Shown here in pieces: positions 14,561 to 53,334 of a stretch of 64,000 nt of DNA. Source of the stretch: an uncultured Gemmatimonadaceae bacterium (GTDB lineage Bacteria > Gemmatimonadota > Gemmatimonadetes > Gemmatimonadales > Gemmatimonadaceae); contig CAWAGQ010000003.1 of the NCBI GenBank assembly GCA_963781585.1, positions 256,001 through 320,000 on the forward strand. Reading direction: 5' to 3'. The position numbers and the translations under genes are program-made. The first letter of the stretch is position 1; each line of letters starts with the position of its first letter. The notes under the pieces were generated by a model. That model did no database searches. It saw only the letters and a list, made by a program, of their open reading frames with translations, and was not told the DNA's origin.

Positions 14561-14576
14561 TGCAAGGATGTTGCCT
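14561..14576 (-). promoter_or_regulatory. Sigma-54 -24/-12 promoter
   Basis: Minus strand AGGCAAC-ATCC-TTGCA, GG-N10-GC. Confidence 0.6.
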
Positions 14577-21241: not shown

Positions 21242-21310
21242 CCGTCATTGGTGTTATGGGTTCACGATTTCTCAGGGAACGCGGATCCACCACCCCGAAG
21301 GAGACATTCC

Positions 21311-21457
21311 GTGGGCACCGTCGTTGCCCCTCTCCAACGCGAATCGTACATCGCCAGGCAGGTCTGGCGCGAAGGGACCCTGCGGCTGCAGGAGGTACGA
21401 GAAGGAGGCGGCGGGCTGGGTCAGGAGCCGGGGTTATTCATGGAGGCGCGGTCGTGA
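21311..21457 (+). CDS. Putative 48-aa leader/small protein
   Basis: AAGGAG 21298-21303, GTG start, stop overlaps next start (GTGA). Confidence 0.35.
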   Translation: MGTVVAPLQRESYIARQVWREGTLRLQEVREGGGGLGQEPGLFMEARS

Positions 21458-23034
21458 CGTTTCGCGGGCTGCAGATCCGGGTGTTTCTCACGTGCTGGCT
21501 CGTTTACGGCCTCCACTTCGACACCGAGTTCGTCCGCGAGCACTATCTGGTGGTCAGTATGGCCGAGGACCACTCGTTCGATCTGTCGAAGTACATGGCC
21601 CTGCATCCCGACATCTTCCGTAACCCTCCCAGCGCGCCACACGCGGGCGTTCATCATGGAGCGAATCCGGGCGTCTCGATGCTGGGCGCCCTGGTCTACG
21701 CGCCGTTCAAGCCGGTTGTAGACGTGATCGTGCGTCGGGAACTCGCATCGCGCGGTCCGCTGGATACGAGCGCGGTGTTCCGCGACGAAACCCGCCCGGG
21801 TCGGCTGCAGTTCTATGCCGAGACCCGTCGAATGGGTTTGGACGTTCGCTTCGGACTTGTGGTGATGATCACCGCAGTCCTTTGCATGGCGCCGATCGCC
21901 GCCGCCAGCGTCGTCGTAATGCTGCGCCTGTTCGAGGGGGCAGGACTCAGTCGCCGCCTGTCGCTCATGCTCGCGTTCGTCTACGCATTTGGGACACCGA
22001 TCTTCCTGCGCGCATCGTATCTCAATCAGAACCTGGCCATCGCCGTCTACTCGATTTTTGCCTTTCTCCTGCTGTGGAATCCGGGTGATCGAATCCGGAT
22101 GTCCGCTCGGCAACGGGAGATTCTCGCGGGAGCCATGGGCGGGCTGTGCGTGTTGCACGACTACAGTGGTGGCCTGTCGCTCGCCGTCATGGGCGTGTAC
22201 CTGCTATGGCGTGTGCGAAGCGAGCGCGGAGTCAACGAGGCACTTCGCTCCGGCCTTCGGTACGCAGTCGGCGCGGCTCCGGGCATCCTCCTGCTCTGGT
22301 TCTATCAGTGGCAGAGCTTCGGCAACCCGTTTCTTCCTCCGCAGCACTGGATGCCTCCCGTGGAGTGGAGCGACGTGGGCTACCAGGGCGTGGGGGGATT
22401 CACGTTCGAGCTGTTCCGGATGCTGCTCGTCGATCCGCGATTCGGACTGCTCGTCTGCTCGCCTGTGCTGATACTGGCGTTGGCGACGCCATTCCTCATG
22501 CGCCGGCGCGCGTCGTTCGTTCCCAGGCGGGAACTGCTGTTCTGCTATCTCTTCGTGGGTGCGTTCATCGCGTTCTTCAGCACGGTGCAATACACCCGCC
22601 TGCAATGGGTGAACGTCGGGCCGCGGTATCTCGCGCCGGCGATCCCTTTCCTGTTTCTAGCGGCCGCGCTGACGCTGGTGCGCCTGCCCCGGGTGGTGGC
22701 GTACGCGGTTGCCATCGTATCGTTCGTGGTCACATGGTCCATGACGATGGTGCGCAGCCAGGGCAGCGTGCTGGACTCGCTGGAAAAAGCGTTCATAGGC
22801 GGTATCCGTCTCCCCGCTCTGACTACCTTCTCCCGCATGTCCACACAGTACGCGTCCTGGCTCCACGGCGACGCGTCGCCGTTTCCAGTCCTTCTTCTCG
22901 CGGGAGCGGTGCTCTTCGCCATCTGGTGGATTCCCCGTCCGTGGGCCCCGGTCGTTCCGGCTGTTCAGGTGTCCGCGGCCGACGGCACGCACGCGGCTGA
23001 TCCGGACGCATTACCGCCGAGTCCTGCATCGTGA
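21454..23034 (+). CDS. Polytopic membrane protein, probable GT-C glycosyltransferase
   Basis: About 10 or more TM segments, acidic first loop (DTEFVREHY), FGNPF and GPRYLAPAIPFL motifs; next to a DPM-like GT2. Confidence 0.65.
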   Translation: MTFRGLQIRVFLTCWLVYGLHFDTEFVREHYLVVSMAEDHSFDLSKYMALHPDIFRNPPSAPHAGVHHGANPGVSMLGALVYAPFKPVVDVIVRRELASRGPLDTSAVFRDETRPGRLQFYAETRRMGLDVRFGLVVMITAVLCMAPIAAASVVVMLRLFEGAGLSRRLSLMLAFVYAFGTPIFLRASYLNQNLAIAVYSIFAFLLLWNPGDRIRMSARQREILAGAMGGLCVLHDYSGGLSLAVMGVYLLWRVRSERGVNEALRSGLRYAVGAAPGILLLWFYQWQSFGNPFLPPQHWMPPVEWSDVGYQGVGGFTFELFRMLLVDPRFGLLVCSPVLILALATPFLMRRRASFVPRRELLFCYLFVGAFIAFFSTVQYTRLQWVNVGPRYLAPAIPFLFLAAALTLVRLPRVVAYAVAIVSFVVTWSMTMVRSQGSVLDSLEKAFIGGIRLPALTTFSRMSTQYASWLHGDASPFPVLLLAGAVLFAIWWIPRPWAPVVPAVQVSAADGTHAADPDALPPSPAS

Positions 23035-23855
23035 TGGCCGTCCCCCACGCATCCATGGATTCGCCTTCGCCGGCGGAACGCCGGAACGAGCCGTCGGTAG
23101 ACGTCGTGATTCCGGTGCTCAACGAAGCCCACGTGCTGGCCCGGAGCGTCGACACCCTGCGGAGCTTTCTGGCGACCCATCCCGGCATCAGGTGGCGGGT
23201 CGTGATCGTGGACAATGGGTCCACCGACGGCACCGACGAGGTTGCGCGGCGCATTGTCGCCACGTATCACCGCGACGTGCAGTTCGTGCAGCTGCCGCAG
23301 CGGGGTCGAGGGCGGGCGCTCCGGCACGCCTGGACGCAGAGCGACGCAGACATTCTGTGCTACACGGATGTGGACCTGTCAACGGAGCTGGCGGCGCTGC
23401 CCAAGATGGTGCAGGCGATTCTCGAGGAAGGCTACCACGTCGCGACGGGTTCGCGGCTGATGCGGGAATCGCGCACTACCCGCAGCTTCAAGCGTGAGCT
23501 CATCTCCCGGTGCTACAATCTCCTGGTCAAGGCGGTATTGTGGACGTCATTCAGTGACGCACAGTGCGGCTTCAAGGCGGTATGCCGGCAGGTCGTCTCC
23601 GAGGTCATTCCCGACGTCAAGGACCAGTCGTGGTTTTTCGACACCGAGTTGATGGTGCTCGCCGAGAAGCGAGGCTACCGCATCAAGGACGTCCCGGTGC
23701 ACTGGGTGGAAGACGACGACAGCAGGGTGAGAATCGTGCGCACCGCCTGGGACGACATCACGGGCGTCGTGCGGGTGCGGTGGACGTTGTGGCGCGAGGC
23801 GCTCTCACCGCAGCGCCGACGCCCGGTTCCGGTGTCGAAGCACACGCCTGCATAA
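23031..23855 (+). CDS. GT2, dolichyl/undecaprenyl-phosphate glycosyltransferase-like
   Basis: VVIPVLNE, VDNGSTD, GRGRA, YTDVDLS, DAQCGFK, WFFDTEL. Confidence 0.9.
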   Translation: MMAVPHASMDSPSPAERRNEPSVDVVIPVLNEAHVLARSVDTLRSFLATHPGIRWRVVIVDNGSTDGTDEVARRIVATYHRDVQFVQLPQRGRGRALRHAWTQSDADILCYTDVDLSTELAALPKMVQAILEEGYHVATGSRLMRESRTTRSFKRELISRCYNLLVKAVLWTSFSDAQCGFKAVCRQVVSEVIPDVKDQSWFFDTELMVLAEKRGYRIKDVPVHWVEDDDSRVRIVRTAWDDITGVVRVRWTLWREALSPQRRRPVPVSKHTPA

Positions 23856-23925
23856 CGACACGGCACGGACGTCCGATCCGCCGCACCGACCTCTCGGCCG
23901 AGGACGCTCTTCCGGTCCGTCCGGC

Positions 23926-24879
23926 GTGACGGGGATCTTCGTGACCGGGGCGAGCGGGTTCGTGGGCCGGCATCTTCTCCGGGCGCTCGACGCCGCCGGT
24001 GCATCGCAGGTGCTCTGCCTCACGAGAAACGCTGGCGGGCTGGCCGCGCTCGAGGCGTGGAATGACGGCTGGGAATGCATCTCCGGCGATCTCCTTGACC
24101 CCGCGTCGTACGCCGCACGCATCCCGGCCGGCGGCTGCGTGGTGCACCTGGCCGCCGCGGTCGGCAAGCGGCCCGGGCGTGACTACGAGCGCGTGAACGT
24201 GGATGGAACCAGAGTGCTCCTGGAGACGGCCGCGGCTGCCGGGGCGGCGCACTTCGTGTTCGCCAGCACAATCGCGACGACCTACCCCGACCTGGCCCGG
24301 TATCCCTATGCCCGCTCGAAGCGCGACGCCGAAGACCTGGTCCGTGCGGGTAGCCTTCCCTTTACCGTCCTCCGCCCCACCATCGTGCTCAGCGAGGGGA
24401 GCTACGCGCTGGCCGCGTTGCGGCGGATGGCGCTCCGGCGTCGCCCGATCGTGCCCGGCTCCGGACGTGTGGAAGTGCAGCCGGTGAGCGTGAACGATGT
24501 CGCGCGCGTGTTCTTCCGGGCGGCGGTCGATCGCTGGCCGGGCGAGACCGTCGACGTGGGGGGACCAGAGGTCGTGTCAATGGAGCGACTGCTGGCACTC
24601 ATTCGTGAGGCGCACGAATTGCCCCCTCGCGCGCCGATTCACGTTCCCATTCGGGCGATCCGACAGTTCCTCGCGCTGATCGAACCCCTGCTGGGGTTCA
24701 TGCTTCCGGTTACCGCCGGTCAACTCGCGGCCTTCGCGTTTCCGTCTCGTGCGGCGGAGAGCCCGAGAATGTCGGCTTTGCTGCCGGGACTGACGCCCCT
24801 GCGCGGCATGCTCGGTGGCGCGGCCGCAGACACGCGTCGTGACGACGCGCAGCCGCGCGCGCCTGCGGAATCGCGGTGA
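23926..24879 (+). CDS. NAD-dependent epimerase/dehydratase family protein
   Basis: VTGASGFVG, VHLAA, YARSK. Confidence 0.85.
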   Translation: MTGIFVTGASGFVGRHLLRALDAAGASQVLCLTRNAGGLAALEAWNDGWECISGDLLDPASYAARIPAGGCVVHLAAAVGKRPGRDYERVNVDGTRVLLETAAAAGAAHFVFASTIATTYPDLARYPYARSKRDAEDLVRAGSLPFTVLRPTIVLSEGSYALAALRRMALRRRPIVPGSGRVEVQPVSVNDVARVFFRAAVDRWPGETVDVGGPEVVSMERLLALIREAHELPPRAPIHVPIRAIRQFLALIEPLLGFMLPVTAGQLAAFAFPSRAAESPRMSALLPGLTPLRGMLGGAAADTRRDDAQPRAPAESR

Positions 24880-25322
24880 GCCAGATGGCTGATCTCGCCC
24901 GCGAATGCGACGTCTTCACGCGGTATCTCGGACATCGCTCGACGCCGTATGTGACCGGCAAGTATCAGGACGGTCACGGCGCCATTCCGACGACTTCGCG
25001 CTCCGACCTGCTGGATCGGGCGTTGCTCGCGTTCGCGCGGGTGGCGCCGTGGGCGACCGGCCTCGCCGACACCTACGCCGCGCTCTTCCGACGCGATGCG
25101 CGGCTGCGCCTCAAACTCGTGCTGCTGGTGGCGATCCTCGAGAACGCGCCCGGCACCCATCGCTGGTTTGACGAGGCCATCGAGTCGACGCGCGCGACGG
25201 TGGCCGGCGTGATGCTGCTGACAGGGATCTCCTGGGCGCTCCGCACGGCGGTGGCCGTCGCCGTGTTCGCGCTTCCGCACCTGGCGTCGGGACTCAGCCG
25301 GAGCAGCGGCCGCGGTGGCTAG
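24876..25322 (+). CDS. Hypothetical protein with C-terminal TM segments
   Basis: Overlaps both neighbours; LRLKLVLLVAILE plus hydrophobic C-terminus. Confidence 0.6.
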   Translation: MSQMADLARECDVFTRYLGHRSTPYVTGKYQDGHGAIPTTSRSDLLDRALLAFARVAPWATGLADTYAALFRRDARLRLKLVLLVAILENAPGTHRWFDEAIESTRATVAGVMLLTGISWALRTAVAVAVFALPHLASGLSRSSGRGG

Positions 25323-26943
25323 GGTGCTGGTGGTCGGCTCGGGCGCGTCGGGCGTCCACTTCGCCCTCTCGGCGCTCCAGCGCGGGCATCAGGTGGTGAT
25401 GCTCGACGTGGGTTACGCTCCGGCACGCGAGCAACCGGCGCCGCAAGCGGCGTATCGGGGGCTCAAGGAGACGCTCGACGACCCGGTGGCGTATTTCGTG
25501 GGAGAGCGCGTGGACGGCGTGGTGTACCCCGGACCGGTCACGAAGCATTTCGGCATCCCGCCGTCGAAGGACTACGTCTTCGCGCGTCCTCCCGCGTTCG
25601 CGCTCTCCACGACCGGGTTCGATCCGATGATCTCGTTCGCCCGCGGGGGCCTCGCGGAAACCTGGACTGCGGGGTGTTACGAGCTGAGCGACCACGACCT
25701 GGCCGACTTCCCGATTTCCTTCGCCGACCTCGCGCCCTACTACGCCGAGGTGGCCGGCCGCATCGGCGTGTCGGGCGAGCGGGACGACATCGCGCGCTTT
25801 TCGCCCTTCACCGCGAGCTATCTCGACGCCCTGCCCCTCGACGCGCACTCGCGGCGCCTGCTCGACCGCTATGCGGGAGCGCGCGATCGACTCCAGCGCG
25901 AGCTCGGATTCCACATGGGACGCTCGCGCGTCGCCACCCTCTCGCGCGATCACGCCGGCAGGAGAGCATGCAGCGGTCTGGGGCGATGCCTCTGGGGTTG
26001 CCCGACCGGATCGTTGTATGCCCCGTCGATGACGCTGGGCGAATGTCTCACCTGGACGCAGTTCGAGTACCTCTCCGGGTGCGAGGTCCGGTACTTCGAC
26101 TACGACACCGCCGGACGGGTGACACGCGTGGTGGCCCAGGCCGCGACCGGCGCCGGAGCCCGCGAGTTCTCCGCCGACGTGATCGTGCTGGCGGCCGGGA
26201 CGCTGGGCACGTCACGCATCTACCTGGCCTCGGTTTCGCGGCGGGAGCGGCGCCAGGTCTCGTTAGGTGGCCTGATGGACAACCCGCACGCGGTCATGCC
26301 GTTCATCACCCCTGCCCACCTCGGCTCCGCCATGGAGCCGGACTCGTACCAGTTCCACCTGTTGGCCCTGGCATTGGAACGCGACGACGGCACGCAGGCA
26401 GCGCACGGGCAGATCACCACGTTGCGAGCGGCCGCTGTCCACCCGATCGTACAGAGCCTCCCGCTCGACCTGCGGCGCAGTCTGACGACCTTTCGCCGCC
26501 TGCGCGCGGCCCTCGGGGTCGCCAACCTGTGGAGTCCGGGCGTCCGTCACGCTGACGATGCGGTCACCATCCGCCCCGCCGACGCGGGGCGTGAGGTGCT
26601 GGAGATTCACTGCCGAAGCGATGCCGAGTCGGACCGTGCCGTGCGCGCCGCGATCGCGCGCGTCCGGCGCGCGCTCTCACTTCTGGGGTGCGTGGCGCCG
26701 CGTGCGCTGACGCAGGTACTCCCTCTGGGATCGAGCGCGCATTATGCAGGAACGCTTCCCATGTCGGTTGACGAGCACGAGCACACGTGCTCCGCCGACG
26801 GGCGGGTGCGCGGATTCGAGAACCTCATCGTCGCGGACGGAGCGGCGTTTCCCGGACTTCCAGCCAAGAACCTGACGTTCACGCTGATGGCGAACGCAGC
26901 CAGACTTGCCGACCGCCTGGGGCGCGTCGGCGGCGGGGCGTGA
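25315..26943 (+). CDS. GMC-family flavoprotein oxidoreductase
   Basis: VVGSGASG, CSGLGRCLWGC, VLAAGTLG, HYAGTLPM, NLTFTLMANA. Confidence 0.85.
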   Translation: MARVLVVGSGASGVHFALSALQRGHQVVMLDVGYAPAREQPAPQAAYRGLKETLDDPVAYFVGERVDGVVYPGPVTKHFGIPPSKDYVFARPPAFALSTTGFDPMISFARGGLAETWTAGCYELSDHDLADFPISFADLAPYYAEVAGRIGVSGERDDIARFSPFTASYLDALPLDAHSRRLLDRYAGARDRLQRELGFHMGRSRVATLSRDHAGRRACSGLGRCLWGCPTGSLYAPSMTLGECLTWTQFEYLSGCEVRYFDYDTAGRVTRVVAQAATGAGAREFSADVIVLAAGTLGTSRIYLASVSRRERRQVSLGGLMDNPHAVMPFITPAHLGSAMEPDSYQFHLLALALERDDGTQAAHGQITTLRAAAVHPIVQSLPLDLRRSLTTFRRLRAALGVANLWSPGVRHADDAVTIRPADAGREVLEIHCRSDAESDRAVRAAIARVRRALSLLGCVAPRALTQVLPLGSSAHYAGTLPMSVDEHEHTCSADGRVRGFENLIVADGAAFPGLPAKNLTFTLMANAARLADRLGRVGGGA

Positions 26944-27055: not shown

Positions 27056-28915
27056 TCAGGCGACGAGAAGGGAACGGCCCTCCAGCGTCGCGGTCAGGGG
27101 CACCGACAGCGCGTCGAGTATCGTCGGCGCGAGATCCAGCAGTGATGCGGACCCTTCCCGGAAGGAACGCGACATGAAAAGCACGCCCGGTACGAGGGTG
27201 GGATCAATGATGTGGTCGCCGCCCCATTTCCGCAGGTTGTCCTCGAACACCACCGCGGGCACGCTGCCTAACGCCGTATCCCAGGACACCCGGTAGCCTT
27301 CGGCAAAATCGACCACCACATCCGGCGACTCGTCGGCGAACGGTCCGGAATACAGCTGCCCGCGGGTGTGGGCCCCGCGCACTGCCACGACGCCGCGCTC
27401 CGGATCCACCAGTCCGGTGATGCGCCGAGCCACCTCGTCGCCTACGCGGTCCGCCTCGTCCCGGGCGACGATCCCCTCGGCATCTCGCCCGCGCACATTG
27501 ACGTAGACGCTTCCCAGTCCGAGTGCATAGGCGCGGGTGCGCCCCCAATCCACCTGTCGCAGAAAATCACCCGCCTCCGGGCCGGGCTGCACTCCAGCCT
27601 TCAACGCCAGGTATCCGTTGGCGTGCAACCAGGCATTGAGGTGGACGCCACGCTGAAACGACCTGAACCCGTGGTCGCTCAGGACCATGACCAGCGTGTC
27701 GTCGCCGCAGGCGTCGAGCACCCTGCCGACGACGCCGTCGCAGCGCTCGTAGTGTTCTTCGATGACGTGCCCGTACCGTGCGCGCTCGTCGGGCCGACGG
27801 CGATTGGCCGGGTGCTCCGGCTCGCCGAACCGCCAGAACATGTGCTGCACCCGATCCGGCGTGTCGAACAGGCAGAAGACAAGCCCGTTGCGCACTCGTT
27901 GCAGCTCAAGCATCAGCATGCGCTCGCGCTCGCGCATGACGTGCTCGCACTGCGCGAGAAATGCATCTTCCCCAAACCGTTCGTTCGTCAGTCCTGCATG
28001 ATCCTCCACCATGCCGGTCGTGTAGAACGGCCCCAGCTGTGCTGCCAGCTCGGCGGCGTACTCCCACGGGTGACTGATGGGAAAAGCCGGCGCCACCGGA
28101 TCGAAGTTCACGGGCGACGCGTGGAGCTCCACCGGCGACCCGGAGCCGACGAGCAGGAATCGCACCATTCCCGATGTGGATTGCAGAGGACCGGAGCGGA
28201 ACCTGAGGCGCAGCCAATCGCTCCACAGGCCCTCCCGAAGCTCCAGCGTGCGCGGCCGCCCGCGACTGAGGATCCGGGCGCAATGCGCTGAAGCATCGAT
28301 GCGCAGGGTAATCGCTTCGGTCACGTCGCCCCGCGTTCGCGGGTCGCGCGGTCCCACCAGGTGAGTCCGAAACTCGCCGCCCTCACCGGCCAGGCGCACC
28401 ACCTGTTCGCTGTCTCCGCGCGCCACATGGTCCGCGGTCGTGTAGAACGTCGAGGTGCCGATTCCGAGGCGCAGGTCGGGAACACCCATGCCCGAAAGCA
28501 ATCGTCCACGGAAGGCGGCCGGCGGATAGGTGCAGGGACACCGGATGATCGCCGATTCGACGCCGGCGTCAGAGAGGATCTCCCACACCGGCGTCCCGCG
28601 CCGGAGGTTCACGGCCTGTGGGGGGAGAAAGGCCCGGGTCTGTTCGTAGCGATTGAGACCGAGATCGGGAAGGTAGGTCGAGGGATCGCGTCGCAGAAAA
28701 TCGAAGATCCCATGACCCCCGGGATTCACCCCGGTCGCGAAGGTGGACCATGCCACCGGCGTCTGGGCCGGCGTCGTCGTCGCAACCCGCGAATACCCGC
28801 CGCGATCACGCAAGCGGGCCAGGTTGGGGAGTCGGCCGCGGGACAGCATCGCGTCCACAAGAGTGGGCTCGAAACCATCGAGCCCGAGAACGATCACCCT
28901 GGGTATCGCTCGCAC
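27056..28915 (-). CDS. Alkaline-phosphatase superfamily protein (type I phosphodiesterase/NPP-like), no signal peptide
   Basis: VLGLDG, PAQTPVAWSTFATG, HGIFDF, DRVQHMFW, SDHGF, GDH. Confidence 0.88.
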   Translation of the reverse strand: MRAIPRVIVLGLDGFEPTLVDAMLSRGRLPNLARLRDRGGYSRVATTTPAQTPVAWSTFATGVNPGGHGIFDFLRRDPSTYLPDLGLNRYEQTRAFLPPQAVNLRRGTPVWEILSDAGVESAIIRCPCTYPPAAFRGRLLSGMGVPDLRLGIGTSTFYTTADHVARGDSEQVVRLAGEGGEFRTHLVGPRDPRTRGDVTEAITLRIDASAHCARILSRGRPRTLELREGLWSDWLRLRFRSGPLQSTSGMVRFLLVGSGSPVELHASPVNFDPVAPAFPISHPWEYAAELAAQLGPFYTTGMVEDHAGLTNERFGEDAFLAQCEHVMRERERMLMLELQRVRNGLVFCLFDTPDRVQHMFWRFGEPEHPANRRRPDERARYGHVIEEHYERCDGVVGRVLDACGDDTLVMVLSDHGFRSFQRGVHLNAWLHANGYLALKAGVQPGPEAGDFLRQVDWGRTRAYALGLGSVYVNVRGRDAEGIVARDEADRVGDEVARRITGLVDPERGVVAVRGAHTRGQLYSGPFADESPDVVVDFAEGYRVSWDTALGSVPAVVFEDNLRKWGGDHIIDPTLVPGVLFMSRSFREGSASLLDLAPTILDALSVPLTATLEGRSLLVA

Positions 28916-29110
28916 CGGATGGCGTTATGCGGCGACGCTGCCAGAACCGTCAGGAGGAACGATTTCAGGCCCTTCGCCCATCGCGCGCATGACGCAACGG
29001 TGATGGCGACGCACACCACTGGATCGAAGCGCGGGAGGATGCGATCGAGTACAGGGATCGCGCGCCGGCCCGCAATTTCGGTGTCACCACAGCAACGTGT
29101 CCGGGCTCAA

Positions 29111-29245
29111 CTAGCGCCGACCGGTAATACGACTCACCAGGAGTCGCACCGCGCCTACCACTCGCCTCCAGAACATGAGCAGAAAGCCCGCAATCGCCGC
29201 GAATGCCGAGGCGACGGGCATGAGGGAATCGGGACCGAGATACAC
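29111..29245 (-). CDS. Unannotated 44-aa single-TM peptide (YLGP type)
   Basis: AGGAG RBS at 29256-29260; MYLGPDSLMPVASAFAAIAGFLLMFWRRVVGAVRLLVSRITGRR. Confidence 0.75.
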   Translation of the reverse strand: MYLGPDSLMPVASAFAAIAGFLLMFWRRVVGAVRLLVSRITGRR

Positions 29246-29344
29246 GTGTCAGCGTCTCCTCTATGTTGCCGGTCGTCGGGAGGACCGTCGATCAAGACCA
29301 CGACGAACCATCGCTTCCGACGTTTCCGGAGACAGGAACCCACA

Positions 29345-29360
29345 AGGCAACGCTATTGCA
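29345..29360 (+). promoter_or_regulatory. Sigma-54 -24/-12 promoter upstream of the sulfate-activation operon
   Basis: AGGCAAC-GCTA-TTGCA; same conserved halves as the 14561-14576 promoter. Confidence 0.6.
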
Positions 29361-29530
29361 AGATCGGCGCGCCAACAAGGCGTGCGCGCCCGCAACGGTG
29401 CCCGCCAGCCCTCGACGCGCGTCGTTAGCGGTATCCATCCGCTATCTTAGCGCATGCGCGGCGAATGCGCTGTGTGGAAACGAGATACGATTCCGCCAAT
29501 GCCGATCCCCGAACTCTCTCAGGCAAGCCC

Positions 29531-31303
29531 ATGAGCAAAGGTGTCACAATCTGGTTTACTGGCCTATCCGGCGCGGGCAAGACGACTGTTGCCTCGCGCG
29601 TACACGAGGTATTGCAGGCCCGCCACATCCTCTCGGAGCGCCTCGATGGCGACGTGGTGCGTCAGAGCCTGACGCGTGACCTGGGCTTCTCCAAGGAGGA
29701 TCGGGACAAGAACATCGAGCGCGTGACATTCGTGGCCAAGCTCCTCACGCGGAACGGGGTGGTGGTCCTGACGGCATTCATCTCCCCCTATCGCCGCATG
29801 CGGGACAAGGCACGCGCGGAGATTGGCGACTTCCTCGAGGTCTTCGTGCAGACGCCGATGGAAGTTCTGCTCGAGCGCGACGTGAAGGGCATGTACCGAA
29901 AGGCCATGGCCGGCGAGATCGAGAACTTCACCGGCGTGAATGACCCGTACGAGGAGCCGCTCAAGCCGGATCTCGTGCTCGAGACAGCGCGCGAGACGAT
30001 CGACCAGAGCGTGGCGCGGGTGGTCCGGGTGCTGGAGGAGCGGGGTTACGTCCCGACTGCCGGCGAATCGGCTCAGGCCGTCACCACGGCCGACCGCGCG
30101 CGGAGCGTCGCAGAGAGCCGCCGGATTCCAGGCCCCAACGCACCGCACGGCGGCGTGCTGGTGGACCGCGAGCTCTCGGGCGATGCGCGCGCCGCCGCGC
30201 TCGCGCATGCGAAGGAGCTGCCCAAGCTGCTCCTGGACGAGCGCGAAACCTCGGATCTCGAGATGATCGGCGTTGGCGCACTGTCTCCGCTCACCGGCTT
30301 CATGCGCAAACTCGACTACGAAACGGTCGTCGAGACGATGCGGCTGTCGGACGGCACGGTCTGGTCGCTCCCCGTCACCAAAGCCGTGACCGCGAAGGAG
30401 GCGGCGTCGATCCGTGCCGGCGGCGAAGTGGCGCTGGTGGACGAGGAGGGATCGCCGCTGGCGGTCATGCAGGTCACCGACGTGTTCCCGTACGACAAGG
30501 AGCGCGAGGCTTCGTTGTGCTTCGGGACGACGGAGACGGCGCACCCGGGGGTGGAGCGGCTGTACCGACAGGGCGAGATGCTCATCGGGGGGCCCGTGCA
30601 GGTCCTTCGCCGGCCGCCGCATGACACGTTCGGACAGTATCGTCTCACGCCGTTGGAGACGCGCCGGCGCATGGACGAAGCGGGGTGGAAGACGGTCGTT
30701 GCGTTCCAGACGCGCAACCCCGTGCATCGCGCGCATGAGTATCTCCAGAAGGTTGCGCTGGAGACTGTCGATGGTCTGCTCCTGCATCCCCTGGTGGGGG
30801 CGACGAAGTCGGACGACGTGCCCGCCGAGGTGCGCATGCGGACGTACGAGGAAATCCTGTCCCGTTACTATCCGGCGCATCGGGTGTTGCTCTCGGTTTT
30901 CCCGGCGGCGATGCGGTACGCCGGTCCGCGCGAGGCGGTGTTCCACGCCATCTGTCGCAAGAACTACGGCTGCACGCATTTCATCGTGGGGCGCGATCAT
31001 GCGGGCGTGGGGAACTACTACGGGTCGTACGACGCCCAGGAGCTCATCGATCGGTTCCCCGCGCACGAGCTGGGAATCACGGCGATGAAGTTCGAGCACG
31101 CGTTCTTCTGCCGCATCTGTGGTAACATGGCTTCGGCCCGAACCTGTCCCCACGGACGCGAGCACCATGTGGTGCTGAGCGGGACCAGGGTGCGCGAGAT
31201 GCTGACCAACGGCGAGCTGCCGCCACCCGAGTTTTCGCGGCCGGAGGTGGCCCGCATTCTCATGGAGTCGTACCAGGAGCAGGCGTCCGCGGCGGAGCGA
31301 TGA
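29531..31303 (+). CDS. cysC-sat: Bifunctional PAPS synthetase: N-terminal APS kinase fused to ATP sulfurylase
   Basis: WFTGLSGAGKTT, LDGDVVR, RDVKGMY, FTGVNDPYE; then PHGG, FQTRNPVHRAHE, GRDHAG, CxxC..CPH. Confidence 0.95.
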   Translation: MSKGVTIWFTGLSGAGKTTVASRVHEVLQARHILSERLDGDVVRQSLTRDLGFSKEDRDKNIERVTFVAKLLTRNGVVVLTAFISPYRRMRDKARAEIGDFLEVFVQTPMEVLLERDVKGMYRKAMAGEIENFTGVNDPYEEPLKPDLVLETARETIDQSVARVVRVLEERGYVPTAGESAQAVTTADRARSVAESRRIPGPNAPHGGVLVDRELSGDARAAALAHAKELPKLLLDERETSDLEMIGVGALSPLTGFMRKLDYETVVETMRLSDGTVWSLPVTKAVTAKEAASIRAGGEVALVDEEGSPLAVMQVTDVFPYDKEREASLCFGTTETAHPGVERLYRQGEMLIGGPVQVLRRPPHDTFGQYRLTPLETRRRMDEAGWKTVVAFQTRNPVHRAHEYLQKVALETVDGLLLHPLVGATKSDDVPAEVRMRTYEEILSRYYPAHRVLLSVFPAAMRYAGPREAVFHAICRKNYGCTHFIVGRDHAGVGNYYGSYDAQELIDRFPAHELGITAMKFEHAFFCRICGNMASARTCPHGREHHVVLSGTRVREMLTNGELPPPEFSRPEVARILMESYQEQASAAER

Positions 31304-32181
31304 CGGCACCGGGTTCGCACGAGCGGTTTGCCGACCTGCAGCTGCACTCGTCCGCGTCGGACGGATCGGATCAGCCGTCCGAGGTGGTGCGGCGGGCCGC
31401 CGGGCTGGGATTCGCGGCCATTGCGATCACCGATCACGACACGATGGCCGGCGTGCCGGAGGCCCGGGCCGCGGCCTCCTCGTTAGGCATCGAACTGCTG
31501 CCGGCCTGCGAGCTGTCCACGCTCGACGGCGACCGACAGGTGGATCTGCTCGCCTACGGCATTTCGCCCGACGACGCCGAGTTCGGCGCCGTGCTGGCCC
31601 AGCTGCGAGGCGGCCGCCTGGGACGGGCGCTCGGCATGGTACAATGCCTCAACGACCTTGGATACAAGGTCTCGTGGGACCGGGTGCAAGCCCTCGCCGG
31701 GAGCGAAAACGTGGGCCGCCCCCACGTGGCCCGGGCGATGGTGGAGGCGGGCGTGGTGCCCGACGTGAAATCCGCGTTCACCGACAAGTTCATCGGCGAT
31801 GGCGGTCGGTGCTACGTGCAGCGCGTGAAGATCGCGCCGCCGGAAGCCATCGCCCGGATTCACGCGGCGCAGGGCGTCGCCGTGGCTGCCCACCCCGGCC
31901 GCACCGGCCTCTCTGACCAGGACCTGTCCGTCCTGGCCGAGGCGGGGCTCGACGGGCTCGAGGTGTTCTATCCACGTCACTCCGCTGGCGAGACGGCGCG
32001 GCTCGAACGTCTGGCGAGGGACCGCGGCCTGCTGATGACGGGAGGCTCTGACGACCACGGTGCAATCAACGAAGGCCGTCTGATGGGAACCGTGCGCCTT
32101 CCCTGGATCCACGTCGAGCGCCTGAATGCCGCCATCCGCGCGCGGGGCGGCATGGTTCCCGCCACCGCGGGAGCGCGGTAG
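31300..32181 (+). CDS. PHP-domain phosphoesterase (TrpH/YciV-like; probable 3',5'-bisphosphate nucleotidase)
   Basis: DLQLHSSASDG, AITDHDT, GRPHVA, AHPGR, TGGSDDHG. Confidence 0.85.
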   Translation: MTAPGSHERFADLQLHSSASDGSDQPSEVVRRAAGLGFAAIAITDHDTMAGVPEARAAASSLGIELLPACELSTLDGDRQVDLLAYGISPDDAEFGAVLAQLRGGRLGRALGMVQCLNDLGYKVSWDRVQALAGSENVGRPHVARAMVEAGVVPDVKSAFTDKFIGDGGRCYVQRVKIAPPEAIARIHAAQGVAVAAHPGRTGLSDQDLSVLAEAGLDGLEVFYPRHSAGETARLERLARDRGLLMTGGSDDHGAINEGRLMGTVRLPWIHVERLNAAIRARGGMVPATAGAR

Positions 32182-32217
32182 GCGCGTGCCGGACCGGACA
32201 CCCGTACGTCGCCACCG

Positions 32218-33756
32218 ATGACCGGGCCAGACGCCCCGGTTCCCGGCCTGCTCACGGTCGCCCCTGACCCGGCGCACGAGAGCGGGCCGTTCCGCTGGCC
32301 CTCCGAGCGGCCGCCGGTTACGCCGACGGGCGGCGCAGCCCAGCTGCCGCCCCTTCCTCCGCCGGCCCGCTGGGAGCGCTGGGGGCAGCGCGCGATCGCA
32401 ACCGGCGGAATCGCGCTCGCTGGCTGGATCTACTTCATGCCGCTTCCCGATGGCCTGGGAACGGACGCGCGAGGCGCTCTGGCGGTGTTCGTCCTGAGCA
32501 CGGCGCTCTGGATCTCGAACTCGCTCCCCTACGGCGTGACCGGGTTGCTGGCGTTGGCGCTGCTCGGACTCAGCGGGGCCATGAAGCCGTTGGAGGCGTA
32601 CTCGGCGTTCGGCAGTCCGGCGATCTTCTTCCTGATCGGCATTTTCGTCATCGGTGGCGCGCTGGTGGAAACGGGGTTGAGCAGGCGCTGCGCGCTGCTC
32701 TTCCTGCGGCGCTTCGAGTCGTCGCCGTACGGCTTCGTCAACGGCATGATGCTGGCCGCTGCTTTCGGCACGCTGTGGATGCCGAATCAGGCCACCACCG
32801 CGATGCTCTTTCCGATCGCGCTGGAAGTGGCACTGGCGCTGCAGCTCCGTCCGAAGGAGAGCCCGTACGCGCGCCACCTGTTCTTCTCAATGGCGTGGGG
32901 GGCGATGATCGGGTCCAACGCCTCGTTCCTGGGATCAAGCCGCGCCGCGCTCGCGCTGGGTGTGCTGCAGCGGAATTTCACCACCGGCATCAGCTTCACG
33001 CAGTGGGTGATCGCCGCGGCACCGGTCGTGGTGTTGGGCCTGCTCACGACGCCGCTCGTGCTCCGGCTCACGATCCCCCGCGAGACGGTGCAGTTTGCCG
33101 AGGCGCGACGGGTCCTGGAGCGCAGCGTGGCAGCGCTGGGGCCGGTGCAGCGCCGCCACTACCTGACGCTCGCCATTCTCATCGCGACCGTGGCCGCGTG
33201 GGTGTTCGTGGGCGGACGCCGGGTTGACCTGGCGGTGATCGCGCTGCTCGGTGCGGCGGCTCTGTTCGCGGTGCGTGTGGTGCGCTGGGAGCAGGTCGAG
33301 CGTCACGTGTTCTGGAACATCATCCTGATGTACGGCGGCGCCATCGCGTTAGGCGCGGCGCTCGAGCGCAGCGGCGCGACCGCCTGGATCGTGACGCGCG
33401 CCCTCGGCAACGTACAACCCTCCCCGTTCATGGCGGTGGCGGGGAGCGCGCTGGTGGCCCTGGTGCTTTCCGAGTTCATGAGCAACGCGGCCGCTCTGGC
33501 GGTTATCCTTCCTCTGGCGTTCACCATCGGTACGCACGTCGGTGCGCCGCCGGTCGCACTGACGCTCGCCACGTCGCTGGGCGCCGGACTCGACTTCATC
33601 TTCCCCATGAGCACGGCGCCCAACACGATCATCTTCTCCAGCGGCTACCTGCGCACCACCGATTTCGTGAAGGCCGGCCTGCTGATGACGCTGGCGTCGG
33701 CGTGCATCCTCCTCGTCGTCATGCGGTTCTGGTGGCCGATGCTGGGGCTCCTGTGA
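32218..33756 (+). CDS. SLC13/DASS anion (probably sulfate) transporter
   Basis: Many TMs, MPNQATTAMLFPI, SEFMSNAA, PMSTAPNTI. Confidence 0.88.
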   Translation: MTGPDAPVPGLLTVAPDPAHESGPFRWPSERPPVTPTGGAAQLPPLPPPARWERWGQRAIATGGIALAGWIYFMPLPDGLGTDARGALAVFVLSTALWISNSLPYGVTGLLALALLGLSGAMKPLEAYSAFGSPAIFFLIGIFVIGGALVETGLSRRCALLFLRRFESSPYGFVNGMMLAAAFGTLWMPNQATTAMLFPIALEVALALQLRPKESPYARHLFFSMAWGAMIGSNASFLGSSRAALALGVLQRNFTTGISFTQWVIAAAPVVVLGLLTTPLVLRLTIPRETVQFAEARRVLERSVAALGPVQRRHYLTLAILIATVAAWVFVGGRRVDLAVIALLGAAALFAVRVVRWEQVERHVFWNIILMYGGAIALGAALERSGATAWIVTRALGNVQPSPFMAVAGSALVALVLSEFMSNAAALAVILPLAFTIGTHVGAPPVALTLATSLGAGLDFIFPMSTAPNTIIFSSGYLRTTDFVKAGLLMTLASACILLVVMRFWWPMLGLL

Positions 33757-34355
33757 CGGCGGCCGGCGCAACCCTCTGGTTCACCGGCCTCCCGGCGTCA
33801 GGCAAGTCGACGATTGCCCGCGAGGTGCACCGGCGGTTGCTGGAACAAGGCGTCCCCAGCGAACTGCTCGACGGCACCGAGGTCCGCGAGAGCCTGTCGC
33901 GCGGACTCGGGTTCTCGCACGACGACCGCGAAGAGCATCTCCGGCGAATCGGATACGTAGCGAAGCTGCTCTCGCGCAACGGCGTCATCGCCATCTGCGC
34001 CGCCGTCTCGCCCTATCGCGCCACCCGCGACGAGATCCGGCGGAACACCACGACCTTCGTCGAGATCTACGTGGAATGTCCGATCGACGTCGCCGAGCGT
34101 CGCGATCAGGAAGGGATCTACGCCAGGGCGCGACGCGGCGAGATCCCCGAGTTCACCGGGATCAGCGCGCCCTATGAGCCGCCAACCGCTGCCGAAGTGC
34201 ACATTCGCTCCGACCAGGAGACCGTGGACGCCGCCGCTCTGAAGGTGATGCACACGCTGGAGCTGCTCCGAATCATCTCCGCGTCACCCGAGTCGGAGCG
34301 CGCGGCGCAGGAAGACGAAATCCGCCGGCGCCTGGCAGCGCTCGGCTACCTGTGA
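33753..34355 (+). CDS. cysC: Second, degenerate adenylyl-sulfate kinase
   Basis: WFTGLPASGKST, LDGTEVR, RDQEGIY, FTGISAPYEPP, tail EIRRRLAALGYL. Confidence 0.85.
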   Translation: MTAAGATLWFTGLPASGKSTIAREVHRRLLEQGVPSELLDGTEVRESLSRGLGFSHDDREEHLRRIGYVAKLLSRNGVIAICAAVSPYRATRDEIRRNTTTFVEIYVECPIDVAERRDQEGIYARARRGEIPEFTGISAPYEPPTAAEVHIRSDQETVDAAALKVMHTLELLRIISASPESERAAQEDEIRRRLAALGYL

Positions 34356-35851
34356 GCGGCAGCCACGACACAGCGCGGCGGACATCGGAGCGCCTCGTTC
34401 TCGACCGCGCGCTGGCGCATGGCGTGGCCTGGATGGGGCTGTCCAAGTGGACCGCGCAGCTGCTGTCCTGGGCGGCGACGGTCATCGTGGCGCGGATCCT
34501 CTCCCCCGCCGACTATGGGATCGTCGGCATGGCGTCGATCTACCTTGGGTTCATTACGCTGGTCAGCGAGTTCGGGATCGATGCCGCAGTCGTGACATTG
34601 CGTGAGCTGCCCGACAGCGTGTTGCGGCAACTCAACAGCCTCGCGGTCTCTTTCGGAGCGGTCAGCTTTCTGATCTCCTGCGCGGTGGCGCCGCTGCTGG
34701 CGAAATTTTTCAACACGCCAGAGCTCACGCTGGTCGTCATCGCCATGAGTGGCACGTTCGTCGTTACCGGATTCCGCGTCGTCCCACAGGCTATTTTGCT
34801 GCGACACTTGCGTTTCCGCGGGATTGCCCTGGCCGACGCGGGACAGGCCATTCTGCTCTCGGTCGCCTCGGTGCTCTTCGCCTGGCTCGGGTTTCGCTAC
34901 TGGACGCTGGTGTTCGGGGCCGTCATTGGTGGCGTGGTATCCACGCTGCTGATTCTGGTCCAGGCGCGGAGCGGATTCGCCTTCCCCCGGTGGCGCGAGC
35001 TGGGAGCGGCGCTGTCGTTCAGTCGGAATACAATCGTGGGTCGCATGGCCTGGTATGGATACGACAACGCGGACTTCTTCGTCGCCGGCAAGATCCTGGG
35101 AAAGGAATCGCTCGGCGCGTACAACCTGGCATGGCAGCTCGCGACGACGATCATCCAGAAGGTCACGTCGCTCATCGGGCGAGTTACTCCGTCGGTGCTG
35201 TCGGCCGCGCAGACGGATCCGGCGGCACTGCGGCGCTATCTCCTCGCGGTCACCGAGACGATTTCGCTGGTCACCGTGCCGGCGACAGTGGGACTCGCGC
35301 TCGTGGCTCACGACGTCGTCCTTGTCGCGTTCGGCGAAAAGTGGCTGGCCGTGGTTGGTCCGTTGCGTCTCCTGGCGCTCTATGCCGCGATTCGCTCCAT
35401 CACCCCGTTCTTCGCGCAGGTGCTGATGGTCACGGGTGAAACCGCGCGCGCGATGCGGATCAATCTGGTCGGCCTGGTGGTGTTCCCGATCGCCTTCATG
35501 TTCGGCAGCCGGTGGGGCATTACGGGGATCGCCGCGATGTGGATCGTGACGCATCCGCTGGTGATTGCGTGGCCGGCGGGCCGGGCGGTGTTTCGACGTA
35601 TCGGGTTGCGGTGGGCGGCCTACCTTGGCGCACTCCTTCCCGCGGCGACATCGGCGACGGTGATGTGTGCCGTGGTCATTTTGGGTCGTTCGCTGCGCCC
35701 GGCCGGTCTGGCACCGATCGCTTCGCTCGCCATCGACGTGCCCACCGGGGCGGTCGCATTTGTCGCCGCGCTCCTGGTGCTGCACCGGAATCGGGTAACG
35801 CGACTGTGGAGTTTCGCGCGAACGAACCTGATGCCGAACCGCACGTCATGA
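34352..35851 (+). CDS. wzx: Polysaccharide flippase
   Basis: ARILSPADYG, GKILGKESLGAYNLA, about 12-14 TMs. Confidence 0.92.
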   Translation: MSGSHDTARRTSERLVLDRALAHGVAWMGLSKWTAQLLSWAATVIVARILSPADYGIVGMASIYLGFITLVSEFGIDAAVVTLRELPDSVLRQLNSLAVSFGAVSFLISCAVAPLLAKFFNTPELTLVVIAMSGTFVVTGFRVVPQAILLRHLRFRGIALADAGQAILLSVASVLFAWLGFRYWTLVFGAVIGGVVSTLLILVQARSGFAFPRWRELGAALSFSRNTIVGRMAWYGYDNADFFVAGKILGKESLGAYNLAWQLATTIIQKVTSLIGRVTPSVLSAAQTDPAALRRYLLAVTETISLVTVPATVGLALVAHDVVLVAFGEKWLAVVGPLRLLALYAAIRSITPFFAQVLMVTGETARAMRINLVGLVVFPIAFMFGSRWGITGIAAMWIVTHPLVIAWPAGRAVFRRIGLRWAAYLGALLPAATSATVMCAVVILGRSLRPAGLAPIASLAIDVPTGAVAFVAALLVLHRNRVTRLWSFARTNLMPNRTS

Positions 35852-41615: not shown

Positions 41616-43526
41616 TCATCGCGTCGCGAGCGCCTGATCCACTCGCGTCCCCGCGAGAACGTGGACGCGCCAGACCTGAAACGCCAGAAGTCGCCAGAGC
41701 CGCCCGGTGTGATCGATTCCCTGCATGTGCTCATCGAGCCACTGCCGCGCGGTTCCGGCGTGGAGCAGGCCGTCGTCAGATGCGGGCAGATAGGCGTGCA
41801 GCATGTCGCGGCCGGCGGTGCGCAACCACTGTCCCAGGGGAACCGAGAATCCACGCTTTCGTGCGTGCGTGATGTCGCGCGGCAGCATGCGCTCGGCAGC
41901 CCGCCGCACCAGCGCCTTGCCGGTGAAGCCGCGCAGTTTCACACGCGGAGGCAGCCCCGCCGCCCACTCGACCAGATGGTGATCCAGAAAAGGCACGCGA
42001 CTCTCGATCGACGTCGCCATGCTCATCTGATCCTGCTTGGCAAGCAACTCATCGAGATAGGTGGCCTGGTCGAAGCGGAGCATCGCTTCCAGAGGGTTGC
42101 GTTGCAGCAGATCGCGGTCGATCAGGCCGCCGAGCCGGGCGTATGGTGTCCCTCCGCCGTCTCCGAGCAGGACATCACGCTGGGCTCGGCGGAATTCCGT
42201 GAAGCTCTCGAGGTACCAGTCCTCGAAGGATGGGCCGTGGGCGAAGGAGGATCGCTTGAGGCGGCTGCTCAGATAGCCCTCGCCGAGTCCGGCCACGCCG
42301 CGTGCCAGCGAGGTCCGCAGTCGTGGGGCGAGCGAGGCATCGAGCGCCCGCGCCAGCCGCCTGTTCCAGAGCGCGCGGGGGTACCGCCCATAGCCGGCAA
42401 ACAATTCGTCGCTGCCTTCGCCGGTCAGCACCACCTTGACCGACTGCACGGCAAGGCGCGAGACGACGTACAGCGGGATGCTCGCCGAGAACGTGAGCGG
42501 GTGGTCGCGATGCGCCGTGAGCCGCGGCAGCAGCTCGAAGAACTCTTCGGGGCGGCAGGTGACTTCATGGTGGTCGGTGGCGAATGCGCTCGCCACGACC
42601 CGGGCGTACGGCAGCTCGCTGGCGTCCTGCTCGGCGTAGCCCACCGAAAACGTGCGCAATTGCTCGATGCCCAGCTCCCGCATCGCGGCCACGATCAGGC
42701 TCGAGTCGAGGCCGCCGCTCAGGAAGACGCCTAACGGCACATCCGCCATCAGCGTGATGTCCACGGCCTCACGAAAGCGCGTCCAGAACTCCCGCGACGC
42801 CGGCTCGACCGACAGCTCACTCGCCCCATCACGCGTCACAACGGCCTCGGGCAGTGTCCAGTAGCGCTCGAACCGCACGCGCCCATCCTCCCACTCAAGC
42901 ACGCAACCAGGCTCCAGCGATCGGACGTCACGAAACAGCGTCCGCCCTCCGGTCACGCTCCCCAGCGCGAAGTATTCGGCGACGGCGTCGGCATTGAGGG
43001 CGGGCTCGATGAGCCCGGACGCGAACACCCCTTTGATCTCCGAGCTGAACACGAGGTCGCCTTCACCGGTTACCGCATAGAACAACGGCTTGATGCCGGA
43101 CCGGTCACGCACCAGGCTCAGCGTCTGACGCTTGGCGTCCCACAGGGCGTAGGCAAACATGCCGCGCAAGGCGCTCGCACCTTTCACAACGCCGTACTCC
43201 TCGGCCAGATGAATCACCGCCTCGGTATCACAGTTGGTTCGGTACACGTGGCCACGCGCGATGAGCGACGCCCGATGCGTTGCGTGGTTGTAGACCTCGC
43301 CATTGTAGGTGATCCAGACCGTCCCATCCTCGTTGCACATCGGCTGCTGGCCGCGCGCCAGATCGACGATGCTCAGACGCTCGTGTCCGAGACCGACCCG
43401 ACCCGACAGATGCTGCCCGCAGGCATCCGGCCCTCGGTGATGGATCGACTCGCGCATCCGCGTGATCATCTCCGCCGGAACACGGCGTTCGGGTTGCGCG
43501 AGGACCACACCGCAGATGCCGCACAT
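41616..43526 (-). CDS. asnB: Asparagine-synthase-like glutamine amidotransferase
   Basis: MCGICG, HRGPD, NGEVYN, LSGGLDSS, TGEGSDELFAGY, ESRVPFLD. Confidence 0.95.
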   Translation of the reverse strand: MCGICGVVLAQPERRVPAEMITRMRESIHHRGPDACGQHLSGRVGLGHERLSIVDLARGQQPMCNEDGTVWITYNGEVYNHATHRASLIARGHVYRTNCDTEAVIHLAEEYGVVKGASALRGMFAYALWDAKRQTLSLVRDRSGIKPLFYAVTGEGDLVFSSEIKGVFASGLIEPALNADAVAEYFALGSVTGGRTLFRDVRSLEPGCVLEWEDGRVRFERYWTLPEAVVTRDGASELSVEPASREFWTRFREAVDITLMADVPLGVFLSGGLDSSLIVAAMRELGIEQLRTFSVGYAEQDASELPYARVVASAFATDHHEVTCRPEEFFELLPRLTAHRDHPLTFSASIPLYVVSRLAVQSVKVVLTGEGSDELFAGYGRYPRALWNRRLARALDASLAPRLRTSLARGVAGLGEGYLSSRLKRSSFAHGPSFEDWYLESFTEFRRAQRDVLLGDGGGTPYARLGGLIDRDLLQRNPLEAMLRFDQATYLDELLAKQDQMSMATSIESRVPFLDHHLVEWAAGLPPRVKLRGFTGKALVRRAAERMLPRDITHARKRGFSVPLGQWLRTAGRDMLHAYLPASDDGLLHAGTARQWLDEHMQGIDHTGRLWRLLAFQVWRVHVLAGTRVDQALATR

Positions 43527-50299: not shown

Positions 50300-50339
50300 T
50301 CCGGGATCCCGTGACGACCCCGGTTCCCGCCCGCCCCTG

Positions 50340-53315: not shown

Positions 53316-53334
53316 GGTATCCAGCCTCCTTTGG

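Follow-up and report, generated by a model that had tools for sequence, protein, structure and literature searches.

We analysed a 64-kb stretch of DNA from an uncultured Gemmatimonadaceae bacterium (hereafter the window, G000:C3:256001-320000, where G000 is our code for the source genome and C3 its contig) and found a previously undescribed functional link between a clade of alkaline phosphatase (AP) superfamily enzymes, termed NPP-long, and sulfation dependent on 3'-phosphoadenosine 5'-phosphosulfate (PAPS). The window as a whole forms a single, extended envelope-glycan region, in which an operon for PAPS supply is transcribed divergently from the genes of a small membrane protein, pep44, and of NPP-long. 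The NPP-long clade is very large and uncharacterised, and is tied to sulfation by its gene neighbourhoods and by recurrent fusions to sulfotransferases, which shows that the link is real. We propose that NPP-long may be an accessory phosphoesterase that is tethered to the membrane and serves the sulfation pathway, a reading to which we give about an even chance; its substrate, once found, would fill a gap in the bacterial PAPS cycle. Apart from cyanobacteria and a few marine isolates, bacteria are generally regarded as rarely carrying sulfated envelope glycans. To judge by this locus and its relatives, soil Gemmatimonadota and Acidobacteriota may produce such glycans with dedicated PAPS operons, in genomes in which no sulfate-reduction genes were found. 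The central features of the locus are as follows, APS being adenosine 5'-phosphosulfate and ORF open reading frame.

27056-28915, minus strand: NPP-long, a 619-aa NPP/PhnA-type enzyme of the AP superfamily without a signal peptide (PF01663 Phosphodiest, E 1.3e-37, 130.6 bits against a cut-off of 23)
29111-29245, minus strand: pep44, a 44-aa membrane protein with one hydrophobic helix
29346-29360, plus strand: sigma-54-type promoter motif GGCA-N6-TTGCA (GGCAACGCTATTGCA), ~100 bases upstream of the PAPS operon
29465-31303, plus strand: APS kinase-ATP sulfurylase fusion with the architecture of a PAPS synthase (PF01583 at residues 25-172, PF14306 (PUA_2) at 226-382, PF01747 at 391-601)
31300-32181, plus strand: PHP-family phosphoesterase (PF02811)
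32218-33756, plus strand: DASS/SLC13-type anion symporter (PF00939 (Na_sulph_symp), E 1.9e-61; TIGR00785, 269 bits, above cut-off)
33702-34355, plus strand: second CysC, a stand-alone APS-kinase paralogue (PF01583, E 8.7e-58), whose ORF overlaps the DASS gene and whose start codon is uncertain
34352-35851, plus strand: Wzx-type flippase (PF13440, E 2.1e-56; MOP flippase family in NCBIfam)

An earlier reading of the same DNA, made from the sequence alone (the sequence-only reading), had described an operon for sulfate import, PAPS synthesis, a PHP phosphoesterase and a second CysC running into wzx. All these parts lie where they had been placed, whereas the gene order differs: the Sat fusion is followed by the PHP, DASS and CysC genes and then by wzx (29465-35851, plus strand). 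In the fusion protein, both the P-loop and the LDGD motif are intact. The best NCBIfam match of the PHP protein, NF041577 (3',5'-nucleoside bisphosphate phosphatase; E 6.4e-50), stays at 169.8 bits, short of the 400-bit cut-off, and the protein is probably a nucleotidase for 3',5'-bisphosphate (pAp). The DASS symporter is a probable sulfate importer. The CysC gene and wzx overlap by 4 bases, and the operon is coupled to wzx. Six-frame searches of the whole of G000 gave 0 matches to PF01507 (PAPS_reduct; CysH/CysD family) and 0 matches to PF01077 (NIR_SIR, sulfite reductase), and control searches with these models gave matches in 14/14 and 11/14 reference genomes, respectively. The reported lack of cysH/cysIJ reduction genes in the window is thus upheld and extends to the whole genome. 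Moreover, the sole ATP sulfurylase and both APS-kinase domains of G000 are those in the window, which strengthens the premise that PAPS without reduction implies sulfuryl transfer. Because no PAPS-reductase-family or sulfite-reductase domain was found in this genome, which is 93.5% complete, PAPS here serves sulfation rather than sulfate assimilation.

For comparison, 151 Gemmatimonadota genomes (G codes) were sampled, and 80 loci of relatives (fetched loci, L codes) were collected from Gemmatimonadota, Acidobacteriota, Planctomycetota, Chloroflexota and other phyla with a query alignment of 12 sequences. Close NPP-long orthologues (54-65% identity) occur in 7 other genomes of the 151, and PAPS genes lie within 5 kb of this close clade in 5/8 Gemmatimonadota genomes carrying it. 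In G098, G140 and G094, a Sat-type PAPS operon is divergently adjacent, as in the window. G021 (L010:3679-13481) has a single-strand array of genes for pep44, NPP-long, NPP-short (a 487-aa paralogue), CysN, a CysQ-like phosphatase, a DUF2061-APS kinase, CysD and a transmembrane sulfatase-fold protein; this PAPS system, of CysDN/CysQ type, is non-homologous to the Sat type and is found in the same company. The sole PF01507 match of G021 and that of G103 stand beside an APS-kinase gene, in G021 also next to CysN, and are therefore read as CysD. The APS kinase of G103 lies 21 kb from NPP-long and that of G135 on another contig, and in G063 (97% complete) the module is present with no match to APS kinase, ATP sulfurylase or PF01507. 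Among the 80 loci, an APS kinase was found at <=10 kb from NPP-long in 10/45 loci at >=54% identity and in 0/35 more distant ones. The association of this clade with PAPS genes, on which the sequence-only reading had leaned, is thus genuine.

The most constant partners of NPP-long in these loci are other AP-fold proteins. NPP-short stands beside it in 51/80 loci, where the stop and start codons of the two often overlap, and PF00884-bearing membrane proteins of 4-5 helices stand beside it in 46/80 loci, flanking it in 7/7 relatives' loci (L007-L015). We compared the latter with what we take to be the reference sulfatase signature, with its Cys and Arg positions. Their signature reads W-T-L-P-S-H; the Cys position is occupied by Thr in 12/13 and by Ser in 1/13, never by Cys, and the Arg position of sulfatases is occupied by His or Gln. 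This family has nine matching places in G000, none of them on C3, and one copy (L004:14484-16397, that is G000:C11:150484-152397) lies 5 kb from the only sulfotransferase gene of the genome. Genes for glycosyltransferases (GT) of the GT-C and GT2 types also recur near NPP-long, and at L060 genes for UbiA, FAD_binding_4 and short-chain dehydrogenase/reductase (SDR) proteins adjoin it. As a general clue, the UbiA/DprE-like context was set aside, since it occurs in only 1/80 loci. In two distant phyla, genes for large radical S-adenosylmethionine (SAM) proteins (L033:8047-9819, also with a SPASM domain, and L060:7426-9567) adjoin NPP-long and Thr-type sulfatase-fold genes; they are reminiscent of sulfatase-maturating enzymes, yet there is no Cys/Ser to mature. 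Copies of NPP-short in G000 lie near contig starts (C2:3479-4939 and C6:1594-2306, both minus strand), the C6 copy being in two pieces as separate ORFs.

Protein fusions also tie NPP-long to sulfation. Long homologues of NPP-long were found with an N-terminal Sulfotransfer_1/3 domain in one case, a sulfatase domain in another (P0151) and a UbiA domain in a third (P0168). With the sulfotransferase part of a fusion as query, 444 proteins were retrieved at E<=1e-5. Among the best 120 of 444, 41 cluster representatives have a canonical sulfotransferase domain joined through a two-helix hairpin to a full NPP-long, which shares 38-42% identity with the window protein, and one more shows this fusion in partial form. 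A further 64 join an NPP-short-like part to TPR repeats and Sulfotransfer_3, and 14 are without an NPP part. Since it is repeatedly fused to a canonical sulfotransferase, NPP-long is most likely a partner with a complementary activity and not a substitute. In P0153, the sulfotransferase domain is followed by a helix, the YVGPGAG loop, a second helix, a basic stretch and the NPP domain, and because two helices separate them, the NPP and sulfotransferase domains would lie on one side of the membrane, the cytoplasm. The fusion set comprises P0153, P0271-P0311 and P0312-P0389, and the hairpin of the NPP-long fusions carries the YVGPGAG loop.

These data bear on the possibility that NPP-long is unrelated to sulfate. 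It might instead be a tethered phosphoesterase of lipid-linked glycan assembly or phospho-decoration, acting for example on a polyprenyl-phosphate-linked sugar phosphate, and its nearness to PAPS genes would simply reflect that both are parts of envelope-glycan loci. In favour of this, its core partners are NPP-short and the transmembrane sulfatase-fold proteins rather than PAPS genes (10/80 loci), G063 keeps the module without PAPS genes, and UbiA is found both in the fusion P0168 and, with FAD_binding_4 and SDR, at L060. GT-C/GT2 genes also recur nearby, and a module of GT-C, GT2, SDR and glucose-methanol-choline (GMC) oxidoreductase genes is convergent with NPP-long in the window. However, this explanation accounts neither for the many sulfotransferase fusions nor for two non-homologous activation systems (Sat-type and CysDN-type) beside the module, and an APS kinase within 10 kb in 10/45 close loci is far over chance for a single-copy gene in multi-Mb genomes. 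We therefore regard it as a minority possibility, doubtful but worth keeping in view. The convergent module is:

21256-26943, plus strand: GT-C-like membrane protein (LA_3751/2 family), GT2, SDR, a 148-aa membrane protein and GMC oxidoreductase

This module looks like a set for a lipid-linked sugar donor and its modification. Homologues of the GT-C-like protein were found near NPP-long in 6/80 loci, and also in G103.

Judged by sequence and model together, NPP-long is a bona fide AP-superfamily enzyme of the NPP/PhnA clade. We take the Thr of phosphonoacetate hydrolase (PhnA) equivalent to Thr52 of NPP-long to be a nucleophile, and presume from NPP structures how the ligands of NPP-long are assigned to two metal sites. 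The earlier description of an NPP-like enzyme without a signal peptide, with intact metal ligands and a putative Thr nucleophile, proved right, as all ligands and Thr52 (PAQTPVAW) are present. Indeed, D13, D354, H358, D414, H415 and H568 are invariant in 47 aligned homologues, of which 34 have Ser and 13 have Thr at position 52, and Thr52 is aligned to the PhnA Thr that is Ala in PDB entry 3t02. An identical database protein, P0001, was called as 597 aa, 22 residues shorter; translation more likely starts at the GTG at 28915, because the shorter call would lose the invariant ligand D13. The AlphaFold 2 model (mean predicted local distance difference test (pLDDT) score 95.5) has an AP-like alpha/beta core and contains a beta-rich insertion of ~150 residues (about 134-285). 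Its best Foldseek matches are Xanthomonas (Xac) NPP, PhnA, SPAP/PafA and ENPP1, with no sulfatase among the matches listed (to rank 49), and a PDB sequence search with NPP-long matched PhnA and ENPP1 and nothing else, within the first 80 residues. PF00884 reaches 16.4 bits over 40 residues, short of the cut-off of 25 for a sulfatase fold, and no P-loop sulfotransferase family of Pfam matches NPP-long at E<=0.01, the fold being different as well.

Compared with Xanthomonas NPP and PhnA (PDB 2gsn, 7n1s, 1ei6, 3t02), NPP-long shares the two-metal core, the Thr nucleophile and the predicted fold (Foldseek E 7e-13 to 2e-11, target-normalised template modelling score ~0.6). In contrast, its identity to them is 12-14%, it contains a large insertion domain and is extended at the C-terminus, and it would be cytoplasmic and tethered rather than secreted. 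The NPP-long family numbers 17,395 cluster representatives at E<=1e-3, of which 2,640 also pass E<=1e-30, and a literature search under COG3379, the COG number of the clade, found no publication on it.

The tether is suggested by pep44. The divergent 44-aa membrane peptide noted earlier is conserved, and its homologues, which start with M-Y-[IV]-G-P-[DE], were found in 46 loci of several phyla. In 43 ungapped matches, the differences at codon positions 1/2/3 are 605/259/980, and on such sequence evidence the pep44 ORF is real. A Y-[ILV]-G-P-[DEG] motif followed by a helix and a basic tail is fused N-terminally to many NPP-long homologues, and in G135 pep44 and NPP-long form a single ORF. Therefore, pep44 and NPP-long are best understood as a split, membrane-tethered enzyme. 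A predicted complex of the two scored 0.00, which is evidence for neither side.

We searched the window and the genome for the enzyme that spends PAPS. Window genes were chosen via third-position G+C, and 51 ORFs were searched against Pfam and 16 proteins against NCBIfam. A sulfotransferase family was matched by 0/51 window ORFs, including the 11 unassigned ones rescanned at E<=5, and six-frame whole-genome searches with PF13469, PF00685 and PF03567 gave no match on contig C3. A six-frame regular expression for a loop resembling the 5'-phosphosulfate-binding (PSB) loop matched no plausible coding frame in the window, and a relaxed tblastn search of the window for a remnant of the sulfotransferase on contig C11 found none (best E 0.56). 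A hidden sulfotransferase in the window was rejected on these results, as the Pfam, NCBIfam, PSB-loop and tblastn searches were all negative. The claim that no P-loop sulfotransferase is recognisable thus stands for the window, but not for the genome, which has one:

C11:144696-145727: Sulfotransfer_3 gene, the only one in G000 (PF13469, E 1.6e-23), with an intact PSB loop (PRSGTT)

PF03567 and PF17784 had no match in G000, and neither had PF09037 and PF19798, blanks that say little because their controls matched nowhere. Orthologues of the C11 sulfotransferase (G098, 52% identity; G029, 49%; G140, 44%) all lie within the homologous syntenic glycan locus. The G098 orthologue stands between a beta-helix orthologue and the CapK-like, DUF362, Wzy and GT4 orthologues of window positions 47388-56360. 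In G029, it follows GT4, heparinase-like, UDP-glucose dehydrogenase, GT4 and beta-helix genes, and the PAPS operon is 13 kb away, with PMT_2-like, Wzx, Wzy and GT4 genes in between. In G140, it stands between two beta-helix/Big_2 orthologues. The simplest reading is that the C11 sulfotransferase belongs to this glycan system and was relocated in G000. In the 151 Gemmatimonadota genomes, 50/52 of those bearing PF13469 also have an APS kinase, often as adjacent genes (a hand cross-tabulation that includes G057 and G097, which are flagged unpublished).

The sequence-only reading had gone further and proposed that the NPP-like enzyme itself transfers sulfate from PAPS. As a non-canonical sulfotransferase, it would use Thr52 to attack the PAPS sulfur and form a sulfo-enzyme, which would then sulfate the lipid-linked repeat unit. 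The adjacency of PAPS genes in 5/8 clade-bearing genomes and the G021 array, which joins NPP-long to CysN, CysQ, CysC and CysD, are in keeping with this idea, as are the PAPS genes of G021 and G103 without a match to four sulfotransferase families. There is also an archaeal precedent: the AP-superfamily proteins Agl7 of Hfx. volcanii (PMC3892788) and Agl30/Agl31 of Hbt. salinarum (PMC11980604) are required, on genetic evidence, for sulfation of dolichol-phosphate-linked glycans. For Agl30/Agl31, sulfation was also obtained by heterologous expression, and one protein is membrane-associated and one soluble (PMC11980604, PMC3892788). However, the archaeal enzymes are sulfatase-like by annotation or model, whereas NPP-long is NPP/PhnA-like with a sub-threshold PF00884 score, a comparison made by description and fold. 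By fold, Agl30/Agl31 have a nearer bacterial analogue in the membrane sulfatase-fold proteins that carry Thr instead of the formylglycine Cys; these flank NPP-long in relatives and are absent from the window. Moreover, G000 has a canonical sulfotransferase whose orthologues belong to the locus by synteny, the 41 representatives (best 120 of 444) join NPP-long to a canonical sulfotransferase domain, and G063 retains the module without sulfate activation genes. The proposal is therefore not supported. A sulfotransferase role of NPP-long in this window is unlikely, and as a general account of the enzyme it strikes us as quite improbable.

A broader version would make NPP-long with its anchor, NPP-short and the Thr-type membrane sulfatase-fold proteins an undescribed, widespread envelope module that spends PAPS. 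NPP-long or a partner would carry out sulfuryl transfer via a covalent Ser/Thr-sulfate, as the sole PAPS consumer in G021 and G103, and in the window would add a second sulfate or swap phosphate for sulfate beside the canonical enzyme. We consider this improbable; if true, the haloarchaeal AP-fold sulfotransferases would have counterparts in bacteria.

We favour, at the even chance stated above, an accessory phosphoesterase. A sigma-54-driven PAPS supply operon inside a Wzx/Wzy-type envelope-glycan locus would cover the import of sulfate, PAPS synthesis and the removal of pAp, and PAPS would be spent on glycan sulfation by the canonical Sulfotransfer_3, moved to C11 in G000. pep44 and NPP-long would be one enzyme in two parts, with pep44 as the anchor, its conserved N-terminus facing out. 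NPP-long, cytoplasmic and with two metals and a Ser/Thr nucleophile, would hydrolyse a phosphoester or pyrophosphate at the inner membrane face beside the sulfotransferase. Its candidate substrates are pyrophosphate (PPi), the removal of which would pull the unfavourable ATP-sulfurylase step, and a phosphate on the lipid-linked acceptor, which appear about equally likely; an adenine-nucleotide by-product is a third, less likely candidate. A phosphoester on the lipid-linked acceptor is favoured by the membrane tether, by the fusion to a sulfotransferase and not to a sulfurylase, and by the UbiA fusion. PPi is favoured because an archaeal PAPS cluster with the same four functions has a PF01663-type gene named pyrophosphatase.

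In reports on this sat-cysC cluster of Thermococcus and Pyrococcus, the PF01663-type gene is named pyrophosphatase (PMC4463584), PPi degradation is speculated (PMC8268124), and the gene is next to that of a pAp phosphatase. The cluster (T. onnurineus TON_1705, P. yayanosii PYCH_17550) is like the window in that a PF01663 gene is accompanied by genes for ATP sulfurylase, APS kinase and a distinct pAp phosphatase (PMC8268124, PMC4463584), and the window has PHP in place of DHH. Unlike the TON_1705 type, to which it is likened by family and gene context, NPP-long is divergently transcribed, split from its anchor and provided with a beta-rich insertion. A different T. onnurineus pyrophosphatase, of HAD type, is treated in PMC11210485.

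Several observations weigh against the accessory phosphoesterase. In G000, the C11 sulfotransferase is unlinked to the locus, and G094 is without a C11 orthologue and has a SULT-like PF00685 protein instead. G021 and G103, both 99% complete and with PAPS genes and the AP-fold module, have no match to PF00685, PF13469, PF03567 or PF17784, and there some AP-fold protein may act as the sulfotransferase. Furthermore, 35/45 close loci, as well as G063, show no PAPS genes nearby, so that the module may have a wider, non-sulfate role. As for the substrate, a pAp phosphatase (PHP or CysQ) is already present in the operons, which would make pAp removal by NPP-long redundant, and a soluble pyrophosphatase would need no membrane anchor.

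The locus can also be compared with canonical bacterial loci for sulfated polysaccharides, in which cysC and sat or cysDN are combined with Sulfotransfer_1/3. In such loci, of which that for Synechocystis synechan (PMC8205485) is an example, the PAPS genes likewise lie in a Wzx/Wzy cluster. The canonical arrangement with a P-loop sulfotransferase is that of most sampled Gemmatimonadota, including G029. In contrast, G000 has its sulfotransferase on another contig, a second CysC that is probably kinase-dead, and a split, tethered NPP-like enzyme.

In the second CysC, the P-loop (GLPASGKST) is present, but LDGD reads LDGT, so the DGD(N) motif for phosphoryl transfer is incomplete. The second Asp is absent in 8/8 stand-alone orthologues of the operon type (Ser, Ala, Pro or Thr instead), whereas it is kept in 17/18 other APS-kinase domains of the fetched loci. 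In human PAPSS, D87A or D89A in this motif abolished kinase activity (PMC8528679). The LDGT change and these mutants together indicate that the second CysC is probably not an active, redundant kinase; a conserved protein that binds APS/PAPS, perhaps with a regulatory role, is more likely.

The promoter motif upstream of the PAPS operon was recognised with the GGCA-N6-TTGCA pattern, which we assume to represent the sigma-54 consensus. This pattern has 2 matches in the window against 0.38 expected. The motif recurs at the equivalent intergenic position in L008 and L014 and, as a variant, in L009 and L040, and a search of the pep44/sat intergenic region for a shared operator found nothing beyond this sigma-54-type promoter facing the PAPS operon. 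Two further features of the window belong to this context:

14561-14575, minus strand: second sigma-54-type motif of the same pattern
353-2314, minus strand: sigma-54 enhancer-binding response regulator (activator), at the window start

The source genome G000 comprises 5.7 Mb in 17 contigs (completeness 93.5%, contamination 7.2%), the G+C content of the window is ~66%, and the closest database proteins are labelled Gemmatimonadaceae. The glycan genes of the window encode a Wzz/tyrosine-kinase-like protein, a polysaccharide export protein, an initiating sugar transferase, many GT2 and GT4 enzymes, Wzx, Wzy and GT-C-like membrane proteins. ORFs that were initially unassigned include the GT-C-like membrane protein (21256-23034), a CapK/PaaK-like ligase (47388-48917), a beta-helix protein (51762-53405) and small membrane proteins. 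The remaining features are:

43526-45673, 41616-43535 and 56407-58320, minus strand: a heparinase II/III-like protein and two asparagine-synthase-like amidotransferases, inside the biosynthetic glycan locus
60179-60613, minus strand: IS200-like (Y1_Tnp) transposase, between the genes for a methyltransferase and a Big_2 protein, within the glycan region

The heparinase-like and asparagine-synthase-like genes suggest that the polymer is amidated and contains uronic acid. The heparinase-like gene was found again in G029, together with UDP-glucose dehydrogenase. The IS200-like transposase lies near the site where relatives carry the sulfotransferase gene, and it is possibly a trace of rearrangement there.

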